Below, piece by piece: positions 51,779 to 55,012 of a DNA stretch of 64,000 bases. The notes beneath the pieces were generated by a model. That model searched no databases. It was not told where the DNA came from and was given only the letters and a program-made list of their open reading frames with translations. Both the position numbers and the translations under genes were made by a program. Source of the DNA: Rhodospirillaceae bacterium (GTDB taxonomy: Bacteria > Pseudomonadota > Alphaproteobacteria > GCA-2731375); NCBI GenBank assembly GCA_018701215.1, contig JABIWH010000012.1, forward strand, positions 3,164 to 67,163, given 5' to 3'. Position 1 is the stretch's first letter. Each line of letters starts with the position of its first letter.

Positions 51779-53185
51779 ATGACGGATCGAGTGACGGATC
51801 GCGGCAATTCACCGGAAAGCCGGGACATCGCCCATGTTTTGCACCCCTATACCAACCTGGCGACCCATGAAATTACCGGTCCGCAAATCGTCACCAAGGG
51901 ACGCGGTGTCTATGTCACGGACGAAAGCGGCAAGGAATATATCGAAGGCCTCGCCGGCCTATGGTGCGCCTCGTTCGGTTTCGCCGAAGAAGAACTCGTC
52001 AAAGCGGCTACGGAGCAGCTCCGCACCCTGCCCTATTATCACAGCTTTGCGGGCAAGTCGGTGCATCCCGCCATTGACCTGGCGGAGCGGTTGAAGGAAA
52101 TCGCCCCCGTTGAATTTTCCAAGGTGTTCTTTGCCAACTCCGGCTCGGAAGCCAACGATTCCGCCGTCAAGATGGTTTGGTACTTCAACAACGCGCGGGG
52201 CACGCCGAAGAAGAAGAAATTCATCTCGCGCCTGCGCGGCTATCACGGCGTCACCGTAGCCTCGGGCAGCCTGACGGGTCTGCCCTATGCCCAGGCCGAT
52301 TTCGACCTGCCCCTGGATTTTGTCCGCCACACCATGACGCCGGATTATTATCGCGGTGCCGAGGCGGGCGAATCGGAGGAAGATTTCGCCTCCCGCTGTG
52401 CCCAGGCGCTGGAAGACATGATCCTAGAAGAGGGTCCCGAGACCGTGGCCGCCTTCATCGCTGAACCGGTGATGGGCGCCGGCGGCGTGATCGTGCCACC
52501 CAAGACATATTTCGAGAAAATCCAGGCGGTCCTGAAGAAATACGACGTGCTGATGATCGCGGACGAAGTGATCTGCGGCTTCGGCCGTACCGGCAATATG
52601 TGGGGTAGTCAGACCTTTGGTATCAAGCCTGACATTCTGACTTGCGCCAAGGCGCTGTCATCGGCCTATCTGCCGATCTCGGCCGTGATGATCAGCGAGG
52701 AGATTTTCCAGGGTCTGCGCGGCAATTCGGAAAAACTTGGCCTGTTCGGCCACGGCTATACATACTCTGCCCATCCCGCCTGTGCCGCCGTCGCCGTGCG
52801 GACCCAGGAATTGATGCAGGAGCGGGATATCATCGGCCATGTGAAGGCGGTATCGCCGCACTTCCAGAACCGGATCGCCACCCTGGGTGATCATGCCATG
52901 GTTGGCCAGGCCCGCGGCGTTGGCCTGATCGGCGCGGTGGAAATCGTCGCTGATAAGGCAAGCAAGCGTTCCTACGACCCCGCCGCCAAGGTCGGCGCGC
53001 TGATCCAGAACGCGGCCCAGGAACATGGCCTGATCACCCGCGCCATGCCCGGCGATATTCTGGGTTTCTGCCCGCCTCTGATCATTTCGCCAAGCGAAAT
53101 CGACGAGATGTTTGACCGCTTTACCAGGGCCCTGGACGAGACCGAAATGCAGTTGAAGCAGCAGGGCGCCAGCGCCGCGCAATAA
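51779..53185 (+). CDS. class III (omega) aminotransferase, aspartate aminotransferase family
   Basis: 468 aa with the PLP-lysine region (ADEVICGFGRTGNMWG...T.AKALSSAY) and the LHPYTNL N-terminus. Confidence 0.85.
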   Translation: MTDRVTDRGNSPESRDIAHVLHPYTNLATHEITGPQIVTKGRGVYVTDESGKEYIEGLAGLWCASFGFAEEELVKAATEQLRTLPYYHSFAGKSVHPAIDLAERLKEIAPVEFSKVFFANSGSEANDSAVKMVWYFNNARGTPKKKKFISRLRGYHGVTVASGSLTGLPYAQADFDLPLDFVRHTMTPDYYRGAEAGESEEDFASRCAQALEDMILEEGPETVAAFIAEPVMGAGGVIVPPKTYFEKIQAVLKKYDVLMIADEVICGFGRTGNMWGSQTFGIKPDILTCAKALSSAYLPISAVMISEEIFQGLRGNSEKLGLFGHGYTYSAHPACAAVAVRTQELMQERDIIGHVKAVSPHFQNRIATLGDHAMVGQARGVGLIGAVEIVADKASKRSYDPAAKVGALIQNAAQEHGLITRAMPGDILGFCPPLIISPSEIDEMFDRFTRALDETEMQLKQQGASAAQ

Positions 53186-53293
53186 CCCGGCGCCGTATTT
53201 CTGGACTAGGGCGCCCAACAGCGGGCTGTCCAATGAAAACCCGCCGCGTGATTGCTCGCGCGGCGGGGTTCAAGGAAGAGCTTCGAAACAGCG

Positions 53294-53551
53294 CTAGTTT
53301 TTCTTGGCAGCGCAAGGATTGCAGGGGCTGCAAGCCTTTTTCGCGGCACAGGGATTGCAGGCGCCACAACCTTTTTTCTTGGCGGCGCAGGGATTACAGG
53401 CACCGCAGCCTTTTTTCGCGGCACAGGGATTGCAGGATTTCGCCGCCGGCGCGCAAGACGCCAGGGCGCTTGGCAGGGTCGCGGTCGCGGTCATCGCCGC
53501 AATGGCGACGGAGCCGAGGACGATTTTTACTCTAGCGGTCGGGTTTGACAT
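53294..53551 (-). CDS. secreted cysteine-rich repeat mini-protein
   Basis: GGAGG RBS and a signal peptide ending ALA|S. The mature ~54 aa consist of four tandem C-x-x-C-N-P-C-A-A-K-K units. The repeats are also visible at the DNA level (53330-53440). Confidence 0.6.
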   Translation of the reverse strand: MSNPTARVKIVLGSVAIAAMTATATLPSALASCAPAAKSCNPCAAKKGCGACNPCAAKKKGCGACNPCAAKKACSPCNPCAAKKN

Positions 53552-53700
53552 TTTATTGGCCTCCAAATCAGATCTCTAAGGTCGGTTTTTTTTCATGACT
53601 ACGCAGGTGCAATTTGGCTGGTCCCTTGGGACAACGCCAATCACTTGCGATCACGAGACCTTGAGCGGAGGCCGCGGCTGCCAGAGCGGGTCGAAAATTG

Positions 53701-53797
53701 GAGCAATTTTTGATTAATCAGGGTCGCTTTCGCGACTTAAGCAATTAATTCAATTGCGCTCTCTTAAAAGTCTGAGCGCTTTCGCTTCCGATGCGCC
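53701..53797. repeat. conserved palindromic intergenic element, copy B
   Basis: Same ~95-nt family as 23058 and 54094. It lies between the 49-aa ORF and the Cys-rich gene. Confidence 0.7.
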
Positions 53798-53947
53798 CTA
53801 ACGGCCGACGCGGGCTTCCAGCATCTGGGCGGAAAGGCTGATGCCCTTGGCCACGGGGTGCTCGGTTGCGTACAGCGGGCACGTGGCCTGGTTGGTTTCC
53901 TGACCCAGCCGCGAAATCATCATGGCAATTTGCTTTACCAGTTTCAT
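53798..53947 (-). CDS. small ORF (49 aa), hypothetical; not in supplied ORF track
   Basis: ATG at 53947 with AGGA 9 nt upstream. It encodes MKLVKQIAMMISRLGQETNQATCPLYATEHPVAKGISLSAQMLEARVGR and is flanked by element copies C (5') and B (3'). Confidence 0.4.
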   Translation of the reverse strand: MKLVKQIAMMISRLGQETNQATCPLYATEHPVAKGISLSAQMLEARVGR

Positions 53948-54093
53948 GGTCTTGTCCTAGCGATCTAATTGGTGGTTTCGGCTGCGCGGCTGCCGCATCG
54001 CCTTTTGTCACGAGGGTGAGATAGGCCTGCTTGGGTGCCGGGACAATTGCAAAAATTAGAGGCTAGGCATGCGCTGCCCGCATGGCTTTATTT

Positions 54094-54180
54094 GAGCAAT
54101 TTTTGATTAATTCGGAGTCGCTTTCGCGACTTAGACTATTGATTCAATTGCTCTTTTCTTATGAGTTTGAGCATGCTTTA
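54094..54180. repeat. conserved palindromic intergenic element, copy C
   Basis: Same family as the other two copies. It lies between the SDR stop (54203) and the 49-aa ORF. Confidence 0.7.
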
Positions 54181-54202
54181 AAGAAACACTCTCTAAGAAA
54201 TT

Positions 54203-55012
54203 CTAAAGACCCATGCCGCCATCGGCATGGATGGTTTGGCCGGTGATATAGGCGGCATCGGGCGAGAGCAGGAATTCAATCAGGGCCGCGATTTCATCAG
54301 GCTGGCCCAGGCGCCCCAGGGGAATACGCTCGGCGGCCCGGCGCCAGCTTTCCGCATTCAAGGCGGCATGCGCGCCTGCCTGTTTCTGGACATAGCCGGG
54401 CGCAACACAGTTCACCGTCACGCCATGGGGTGCCAGGTCCACCGCCAGGGCGCGGGCCAGGGCTTCCAACCCCGCCTTGGCCGCGGCGCTTGCCGGCATC
54501 GACACGCCATCAAGTTGAAACCGATGCGCCACAAACGAAGATACCGCCACCACCCGGCCCACCTCGGCGGCCTGCAACAAAGGCATGGCGGCCCGGCAAA
54601 GGCGGTGAAAGCCGCCGGTTATGGCCGCCAGGCTGTGCGCCAGGGCATCATCTTCCAAACTTGCCAAGGGCGTTTTGTCGGCGAAACCGGCGTTGGCGAC
54701 CAAACCGTCCAAACGGCCTTCGCTTGCCACCGATGCAATCAGGTCCGCGGCAACGCCTGTATCGGCCAGATCACCTAACAATAAATGGCTCCGTCCGCCC
54801 TTGGCCTCGACCGCCCTGGCGACCTCTTCGGCACCCGTCCGGTTGGCACGGGTGTGGATGAACAACGTGATATCCGGTGCGGCCAGACGCCGGCATAAAG
54901 CCGCGCCAATCCCGCTGGCCGCGCCGGTCACCAGGATTGTACGGTTCCGATTTTCATTTTGTGGGTTCAATCTGGCAATCTCCCTGCGGCAAGTCGTTGC
55001 TAAATGCCGCAA
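54203..55012 (-). CDS. SDR family oxidoreductase
   Basis: TGAASGIGAAL Rossmann motif. The track start is a TTG, and an in-frame TTG at 54970 with an AGGGAG RBS is an alternative. Confidence 0.8.
   Translation of the reverse strand: MRHLATTCRREIARLNPQNENRNRTILVTGAASGIGAALCRRLAAPDITLFIHTRANRTGAEEVARAVEAKGGRSHLLLGDLADTGVAADLIASVASEGRLDGLVANAGFADKTPLASLEDDALAHSLAAITGGFHRLCRAAMPLLQAAEVGRVVAVSSFVAHRFQLDGVSMPASAAAKAGLEALARALAVDLAPHGVTVNCVAPGYVQKQAGAHAALNAESWRRAAERIPLGRLGQPDEIAALIEFLLSPDAAYITGQTIHADGGMGL

Follow-up and report, generated by a model that had tools for sequence, protein, structure and literature searches.

Peptidyl cysteines are central to several described systems. Bufferins are MNIO-modified, Sec-exported and copper-binding RiPPs, ribosomally synthesised peptides that are modified after translation (PMC11626156), and the Chryseobacterium ChrA/ChrH RiPPs of the lipoprotein pathway likewise start from a cysteine-containing precursor with a lipoprotein-type signal (PMC13056109). 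SoxA-family cytochromes oxidatively conjugate thiosulfate to the thiolate of the SoxYZ carrier (PMC4423706). The formylglycine-generating enzyme (FGE) holds Cu(I) through two cysteines, and the peptidyl cysteine that is oxidised lies in the motif C-x-P-x-R (PMC12123546, PMC2459300, PMC4505483). Metallothioneins such as SmtA and BmtA are small cytosolic proteins of about 20-30% Cys. The subject here is a short gene at positions 53294-53551 of a 64-kb stretch of contig JABIWH010000012.1 from a Rhodospirillaceae bacterium, the whole of which is referred to as the window. It encodes an 85-aa peptide with four tandem copies of a Cys-Asn-Pro-Cys-Ala-Ala-Lys-Lys unit, named here the NPC repeat.

The gene is genuine and conserved, the peptide bears export signals, and the NPC repeat is an undescribed periplasmic module family. 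Among its relatives the repeat recurs beside two enzyme-like proteins, DUF6969 and an FGE-like protein, and roughly every second repeat protein is a fusion with a haem domain. The system has its general logic in common with bufferins, SoxYZ/SoxAX and metallothioneins, and has none of their defining components. The reading that we prefer, tentatively, is that the peptide would be a periplasmic array of reactive thiols with a carrier or redox-buffering function towards haem and thiol-oxidase partners, sulfur species being the most coherent ligand. The peptide gene has the following parts:

53294-53551, minus strand: coding sequence of the 85-aa pre-peptide, from the list of open reading frames (ORFs) and its translation, with the ATG at 53551 and the stop codon at 53294-53296
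53560-53564, minus strand (read from 53564 to 53560): Shine-Dalgarno sequence GGAGG, 8 nt upstream of the ATG and kept in all aligned orthologs
53459-53551, minus strand: signal peptide MSNPTARVKIVLGSVAIAAMTATATLPSALA, aa 1-31, from the hydropathy profile and the lipobox pattern; the most conserved part among orthologs
53297-53458, minus strand: mature 54-aa repeat region, with 12 Cys, 10 Lys and 7 residue types
53298-53436, no strand assigned: DNA tandem repeat that coincides with the coding repeat, given by Tandem Repeats Finder a period of 36 (3.7 copies) or 75 (1.9 copies)

The full translation consists of the signal peptide followed by SCAPAAKSCNPCAAKKGCGACNPCAAKKKGCGACNPCAAKKACSPCNPCAAKKN, the mature part, which is laid out as SCAPAAKS-CNPCAAKK-G-CGACNPCAAKK-KG-CGACNPCAAKK-A-CSPCNPCAAKK-N. 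It is built of A, C, K, P, N, G and S alone, with 12 Cys (22%) and with neither aromatics nor His. The ATG at 53551 is the likely start, since the alternative in-frame TTG at 53566 falls within or beyond the ribosome-binding site (RBS). An initial annotation of this DNA had described the ORF with its GGAGG site, the Sec-type signal peptide ending in A-L-A, the mature sequence of about 54 residues and the tandem nature of the repeats at the DNA level, and all of these are borne out, on the minus strand, which it had left unstated. Its count of 13 Cys and 9 Lys is to be corrected to 12 and 10. It had also raised strain-to-strain variation in repeat number as a point to be checked, and the number does differ among near-identical relatives, which have proteins of 60, 71, 84 and 85 aa.

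The repeat is visible in the DNA itself, and shadow ORFs of similar length occur in other frames, as would be expected if the ORF were a fortuitous one over non-coding tandem DNA. This reading, which deserves practically no credence, is ruled out by the pattern of selection, and the refutation that the initial annotation had named for itself, a chance ORF on repetitive DNA, does not hold. Over the first 33 (signal-peptide) codons of eight orthologs (the window and the related loci L001, L002 and L011-L015), the ratio of non-synonymous to synonymous differences (pN/pS) is 0.10, with a pS of 0.405 and a pN of 0.040; over the last 13 codons the ratio is meaningless because the ends differ in length. 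The four CNPCAAKK cores of the window gene differ from each other at synonymous sites only (TGC/TGT, CCC/CCT, GCC/GCG/GCT, AAA/AAG). Orthologs at 73-95% identity (L001-L005, L011-L015) are found, and the signal peptide, the RBS, a promoter-like element and a terminator are conserved with the gene. The same protein-level motif is shared by hundreds of homologs across classes.

The signal-peptide call is rule-based, made from hydropathy and pattern matching. An n/h/c arrangement typical of Sec signals is seen in residues 1-31, with R7 and K9 as the basic residues, a hydrophobic core at 10-26 and A-L-A at 29-31. The lipobox pattern [LVI][ASTVI][GAS]C is matched, as a pattern only, by L30-A31-S32-C33 (53453-53464), and orthologs have LAAC or MAGC. 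Hence the pre-peptide would be processed either by signal peptidase I after A-L-A or by signal peptidase II at L-A-S-C before C33, and the peptide of the window clade may be lipid-anchored through its first Cys rather than soluble. In this it would resemble the ChrA/ChrH precursors, from which the NPC system differs in that no MNIO is seen at its loci and that the distance between the hydrophobic core and the first Cys is too great in other clades.

Known families do not account for the repeat. In a Pfam scan of the peptide at E<=10 only zf-CXXC (PF02008) appeared, at 19.3 bits and so below its gathering cut-off of 26.5; the metallothionein families, including the bacterial PF02069, were unmatched in that scan. 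The NCBIfam scan returned nothing, and neither Pfam nor NCBIfam matched DUF2282 or BUF_6/12Cys to the peptide. No relevant literature was found on a CNPCAAK-type motif, on DUF6969, on FGE together with RiPPs, or on P460 together with cysteine-rich proteins. The CNPCAAKK unit thus stands as undescribed, as had been suspected from the letters of the sequence. Homologs in relatives, another point raised at the outset, numbered 289 in a first, word-indexed search; at least 451 loci occur in species-representative genomes, and 314 clusters at 50% identity occur among 1.84 billion representatives. The hosts are chiefly marine Alphaproteobacteria (Rhodospirillaceae, Sneathiella, Kiloniellaceae, Pelagibius, Denitrobaculum, Hoeflea, Anderseniella and Hyphomicrobiales), with some Gammaproteobacteria and one Nitrospinota. 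The window itself has about 88% nucleotide identity with contigs of metagenome-assembled genomes (MAGs) of uncultured marine Rhodospirillaceae. Throughout the family N-P-C and then A-A-K are invariant, and the Cys are invariant in alignment A1.

Fusion to haem domains is one line of evidence for the preferred carrier role. The 170 loci yield 153 complete, distinct repeat ORFs, of which 77 encode short proteins that stand alone, 51 have a P460-like domain at the C-terminus, 18 have an internal SoxA-like haem domain between repeats, and 7 are laid out otherwise. The P460-like domain is a divergent one that passes the Pfam model PF16694 narrowly and weakly (28.4 bits, cut-off 27); it has a C-terminal CxxCH, and precomputed PF16694 matches exist in L009 and L170. 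A profile of this domain (A5) matches P460-family PDB chains only, with a best E of 9.3e-5. The profile of the internal haem domain (A4) matches SoxA of Rhodovulum sulfidophilum (1h31_A) over the whole domain with an E of 2.5e-6 and 30.7 bits, and more weakly other SoxA chains and TsdA; the NCBIfam SoxA model stays below threshold (21 vs 110 bits). In the alignment to 1h31_A the CxxCH falls on C76/C79/H80 and an invariant Cys falls on Cys114, reportedly the Cys ligand of that haem (Bamford et al. 2002). Some of the P460 fusions (P0266, P0285) have a LysM-like peptidoglycan-binding segment between their repeat blocks. Public gene calls often fail on the repeats, giving for example a 98-aa ORF on the wrong strand and the P460 domain as a truncated protein of 112-148 aa (L170 8745-10355 of Hoeflea sp. 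TYP-13; L009 6274-7836). The long fusion proteins are largely missing from annotations because the calls break on the repeat region.

The likeness to SoxYZ with SoxAX/TsdA lies in a SoxA-related haem domain placed beside exposed Cys, much as SoxAX loads the SoxY arm (PMC4423706). The two differ in several respects, as the NPC peptide has no SoxY family match, no SoxY fold and no GGCGG C-terminus, and has many Cys per chain in place of one. Moreover, the match is to the non-catalytic N-terminal domain of SoxA, and most of the NPC fusions carry a P460-like domain instead.

Gene neighbourhoods supply another line of evidence. DUF6969 (PF22308) lies within 8 kb of the repeat gene in 50 of the 79 species-level loci and the FGE-like protein in 34 of them, both figures being lower bounds because many contigs are cut. 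In the reverse direction, an NPC-repeat ORF is present at 15 of the 23 DUF6969 loci that have at least 2.5 kb on both flanks. A typical operon consists of DUF6969, the FGE-like protein, a short repeat peptide and a repeat-haem fusion (L009, L025); a gammaproteobacterial variant has a cupredoxin-like protein (L010, L043, L054). As accessory genes, a transporter of the YeeE/YedE family occurs in 12 loci, DUF302 in 10 and the cupredoxin-like protein in 12-17. The YeeE/YedE family transports thiosulfate, zero-valent sulfur or selenium, and its presence near some NPC clusters recalls SoxT with the sox genes (PMC11582611).

A tblastn search of the whole window with DUF6969, FGE-like and cupredoxin-like queries found nothing, and by its gene context the window copy is an orphan paralog. 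The window lineage probably has the enzymes elsewhere in its genome, since two related MAGs hold both an orphan ortholog and, on other contigs, a DUF6969/FGE-like cluster: CAYWYB (L001 and L020), the second-closest relative found, and the more distant JAJFGG (L013 and L021).

The FGE-like partner has a full-length PF03781 (FGE-sulfatase) domain with E values of 1e-43 to 4e-42. A hydrophobic, signal-like stretch is present at the N-terminus in the roughly 20 ORFs whose called start is near the domain, the remaining ORFs beginning at upstream starts. All share an invariant segment GGSWDD.GCG.CR...AAR, with an invariant CxxC between GGSW and AAR, and the aligned relatives ToxD, pFGE and PorK lack this Cys pair. 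FGE is not a nearer relative of the protein than ToxD or CalU17 are. Its hidden Markov model alignments to FGE chains end before the CxxC segment, and HMMER placed that C-terminal segment on PorK and pFGE alone, both Cys-less there. In a register against human FGE set by hand, the Ser and the two Cys of the FGE-like protein presumably fall in the segment that holds the catalytic Cys pair of FGE.

DUF6969 has 4,379 homolog clusters, all unnamed, and shows no signal peptide where the start is clear. It has seven invariant His, six of them in a short stretch of motifs, with motifs such as HYP.GD, QYYYHAHR and EHGHFHTF. Its AlphaFold2 model is confident (pLDDT 86, pTM 0.89). Against the PDB, the sequence search gave no match and a Foldseek search of the model gave none at E<=0.001.

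On the preferred carrier reading, a Sec-exported and possibly lipid-anchored peptide of four (C-x-x-)C-N-P-C-A-A-K-K units would present unfolded, closely spaced reactive thiols and would serve haem and thiol-oxidase partners as a carrier or redox buffer. The favoured cargo would be sulfur, held as Cys-persulfide or Cys-S-thiosulfonate in the manner of the SoxY arm for SoxAX, and the FGE-like/DUF6969 pair, whose genes probably lie elsewhere in this lineage's genome, may act on the cysteines beforehand. We infer every chemical step of this mechanism. In terms of the loci, the recurrent partners point to thiol, sulfur or haem redox chemistry, or to Cys modification, at least as strongly as to metal storage.

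Several points weigh against the carrier role. The partner genes are absent from the 64-kb window, so that repeat homology alone links them to the window gene, and they are not obligatory, as 29 of the 79 loci have no nearby DUF6969 and 8 of the 23 DUF6969 loci have no repeat gene. The SoxA-like match is modest, at 30.7 bits and to the N-terminal, non-catalytic haem domain, and P460 proteins are known for nitrogen rather than sulfur chemistry. No sox gene, SoxZ included, was noticed beside the clusters, though no search was aimed at sox genes. The composition of Cys, Lys, Ala, Pro, Asn, Gly and Ser without aromatics is also metallothionein-like, and the near-invariance of N-P-C-A-A-K would be more expected of a motif recognised by an enzyme than of a plain carrier arm. 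The proposed mechanism is, moreover, drawn wholly from homologs.

The N-P-C repeat could be the substrate of a new modification system composed of DUF6969, as a His-rich metalloenzyme, and a periplasmic, copper-type FGE-like oxidase, which is a speculative proposal though one to be taken seriously. On a rival reading, which we consider unlikely, the peptide would be a RiPP-like precursor whose N-P-C units serve as recognition sites and whose cysteines are converted by DUF6969 before export, by the periplasmic FGE-like oxidase, or by both, with the modified product as the active species; the products could be, for example, formylglycine cross-linking with the neighbouring lysines or another thiol-derived group. 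The tight linkage of repeat genes to two enzyme-like proteins suits such a precursor, as do the near-invariance of N, P, C, A, A and K in distant taxa and the seven invariant His of DUF6969 in a confident model that has no PDB fold match. Between the signal peptide and the first Cys many of the non-orphan homologs keep (I/L)-x-L-A-(A/S), a possible leader. The Ser and two Cys of the FGE-like protein, in the register assumed above, count on the same side, and bufferins offer a precedent for modification followed by Sec export (PMC11626156).

The likeness to FGE consists of the PF03781 domain of the partner (1e-43), its two invariant Cys and a repeat Cys with Pro at +2, as in C-x-P-x-R (PMC4505483, PMC2459300, PMC12123546). 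However, the canonical motif is not matched by C-N-P-C-A-A-K, which has Ala in place of Arg at +4. There is also no sulfatase, the FGE-like protein has CxxC in place of Cx4C, and it is as near to ToxD or CalU17 as to FGE. The precursor reading is further weakened by the window clade and the many other loci that have no nearby enzyme gene, by the repeats within large haem proteins, which are atypical of RiPPs, and by the clusters themselves, in which no RiPP recognition element, protease or exporter gene was seen.

The initial annotation had proposed either a periplasmic metal-binding peptide, metallothionein-like or Cu/Zn/Cd-chelating, or a Cys-rich structural or adhesive one. The first of these corresponds to a possible periplasmic metallothionein-like sponge, functionally similar to a bufferin, whose CxxCxxC thiolates would chelate or buffer Cu(I), Zn, Cd or Hg. 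A composition of 22% Cys with neither aromatics nor His is that of metallothioneins, and the mature peptide has the small size, the 15-30% Cys and the CxxC/CxC spacing of this class. In each unit three Cys are spaced as CxxC, and no fold is predicted for the apo form: AlphaFold2 with alignment A1 gave the window peptide a pLDDT of 44 and no usable model. The resemblance to SmtA/BmtA thus extends to the Cys content, the spacing, the use of Lys, Ala, Ser, Gly, Pro and Asn and disorder without ligand. In addition, Cu(I) is held by a pair of Cys in the FGE superfamily (PMC12123546), and a CxxC is retained in the FGE-like partner; a cupredoxin-like neighbour is present in 12-17 loci, as listed above; and Sec-exported Cys peptides that buffer copper have a precedent in bufferins (PMC11626156).

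The differences from metallothioneins are nevertheless many. The NPC peptide is exported rather than cytosolic, has no homology to them and has enzyme and haem partners, and its non-Cys N, P, A, A and K are nearly invariant, an uncommon trait among metallothioneins. The periplasm oxidises free thiols, and the known Cu(I) sites there are Met/His or modified Cys (PMC11626156). No recurrent metal-resistance, efflux or metal-sensor gene appeared among the neighbour clusters and Pfam tables of the 170 loci and the window, although no dedicated search was made. The cupredoxin-like neighbour, as read from its sequence, also lacks the His and Met copper ligands. As originally stated, with composition as its sole basis, the metal-chelator assignment is unsupported, and the recurrent partners point at least as strongly elsewhere; the sponge is a doubtful though serious contender. 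It and the modified precursor are close rivals, and both are partly compatible with the carrier role.

Bufferins share with the NPC precursor an N-terminal Sec signal and conserved Cys. They differ in their partners, which are FGE-like and DUF6969 proteins at the NPC loci, where neither DUF692/MNIO nor DUF2063 was seen in the Pfam-annotated contexts or among the recurrent neighbours of 89 loci, again with no dedicated search. The NPC repeat has no homology to DUF2282 or BUF_6/12Cys, and it also occurs fused to haem domains.

A purely structural role may also be considered, in which the repeats would form a Lys-rich tether or spacer, stiffened by disulfides and attached to lipid at Cys33, for binding anionic envelope components or keeping haem domains at a fixed distance; the short proteins would then be decoys or copies that have degenerated. 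The P460 fusions always place the repeats between an N-terminal hydrophobic segment and the haem domain, a LysM insert is found in some of them, the number of repeats is freely variable, and the lipobox-like L-A-S-C (LAAC or MAGC in orthologs) would provide the anchor. Such an element leaves unexplained the enzyme partners, the presence of repeats before as well as after the SoxA-like domain, the fact that N-P-C is strictly conserved, and the many stand-alone short proteins encoded beside the fusions, and it is quite improbable.

The consequences differ with the reading. If the modification system is real, cysteines would be turned into a new thiol-derived group or cross-link in a new class of Sec-exported modified peptides, and P460-like and SoxA-like haem enzymes of marine sulfur or nitrogen cycling would be supplied by the resulting protein-borne prosthetic arms. 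The NPC system may prove categorically new if DUF6969 and the FGE-like protein carry out new chemistry. The possible outcomes are a second route, independent of MNIO, to exported metallophores derived from Cys, a new sulfur-carrier system or a new Cys modification, and once the chemistry is worked out, functions would be known for DUF6969 (more than 4,000 clusters), for the FGE-like subfamily and for the repeat family. The module is present in hundreds of marine alpha- and gammaproteobacterial species despite lacking a model, an annotation or a paper. Repeat genes are present in a number of strains in culture (Denitrobaculum tricleocarpae R148, Pelagibius sp. Alg239-R121, Hwanghaeella sp. 1Z406 and Hoeflea sp. 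TYP-13), which makes the question directly testable.

The gene of the window is flanked by probable transcription signals of its own:

53612-53640, minus strand: putative sigma-70-type promoter, with a -35 TTGGCG (53640 to 53635), a 17-nt spacer and a -10 CCAAAT (53617 to 53612)
53641-53664, minus strand: conserved block TCAAGGTCTCGTGATCGCAAGTGA, directly upstream of the -35 and with 0-5 mismatches at every ortholog
53237-53270, no strand assigned: terminator hairpin that separates the peptide gene from the convergent aminotransferase gene, with 15-nt arms that are 87% complementary

All aligned orthologs retain the form TTGGC-N17-GCCA(A/G)AT, two of them with one-base changes, and the sequence of the spacer varies. 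A consensus promoter scan did not flag this element, and the only site that it did flag, a weak one overlapping the RBS, was rejected. The block TCAAGGTCTCGTGATCGCAAGTGA contains two GTGAT(C/T)G half-sites 10-11 nt apart, is retained even where the upstream neighbour gene of the ortholog differs, and is found nowhere else in the window or in 170 related loci; it is possibly an activator or operator site for a regulator. It is missing upstream of the paralogous clusters, which leaves a shared regulon without evidence. On the minus strand the terminator reads CCCCGCCGCG...CGCGGCGGG and then TTTTC, and among orthologs its stem is conserved and its loop variable. Because the orthologs keep the RBS, the promoter-like element, the upstream block and the terminator, the peptide gene is therefore a self-contained monocistronic unit between a class-III aminotransferase gene and a short-chain dehydrogenase/reductase (SDR) gene. 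No match was found by Rfam over 52800-54400 at E<=1, and hence no known riboswitch or small RNA.

Whether the flanking palindromes regulate the gene had been raised in the initial annotation as a point to be checked. One of them is the conserved terminator at 53237-53270, and another belongs to a 54-nt direct repeat (53707-53760 and 54101-54154, 78% identity), each copy of which holds the hairpin GTCGC-TTTC-GCGAC, a 14-mer found in exact form at these two sites only in the 64 kb. The repeat may be a small mobile or repetitive extragenic palindromic (REP)-like intergenic element. The copy nearer to the peptide gene sits in a stretch of about 100 nt that is missing from the closest relatives, L001 and L014, and so it is not a conserved regulator of the gene. 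A further 10-nt palindrome lies at 53691-53713. The two 54-nt copies flank a 49-aa ORF (53798-53947, minus strand) between the peptide gene and the SDR gene, which is called as a gene in L001, is conserved in L014 and has no family match on record. In L002 (7922-9703) and L015 (5922-7703) a gene for a 593-aa adenylate/guanylate cyclase with tetratricopeptide repeats is inserted between the SDR and peptide genes, and the upstream block is still kept downstream of the insertion. A comparison led to the rejection of the 49-aa ORF as a remnant of the cyclase gene at the same position in L002.

Some further neighbours were observed at the related loci. The cupredoxin-like protein is a periplasmic protein of about 150 aa with a weakly cupredoxin-like C-terminus (L010 5484-5942, L087 7101-7595 and about 15 other loci); it has a conserved Cys in an S-C-P-L-N motif and no family model. 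In one alphaproteobacterial clade (L017, L019-L022, L030, L031, L034, L060, L078) MsrB (SelR) and a HAD hydrolase come after the DUF6969/FGE-like cluster, an adjacency that may reflect clade-specific synteny or a link to oxidative stress. As candidate partners of the repeat, MsrB, HAD, SDR, acyl-CoA dehydrogenases and aminotransferases were discounted as clade-specific synteny. A staphylococcal nuclease (SNase)-like gene (PF00565) is directly upstream of stand-alone P460-repeat fusions in L049 (7258-7767) and nine other loci, where DUF6969 and the FGE-like protein are not nearby. Possible regulators include, in L006 and L007, a response regulator in divergent orientation to the peptide gene, and a pair of an extracytoplasmic function (ECF) sigma factor and a DUF3379 anti-sigma factor that is divergent from the gammaproteobacterial cluster in L010 (2057-3321).

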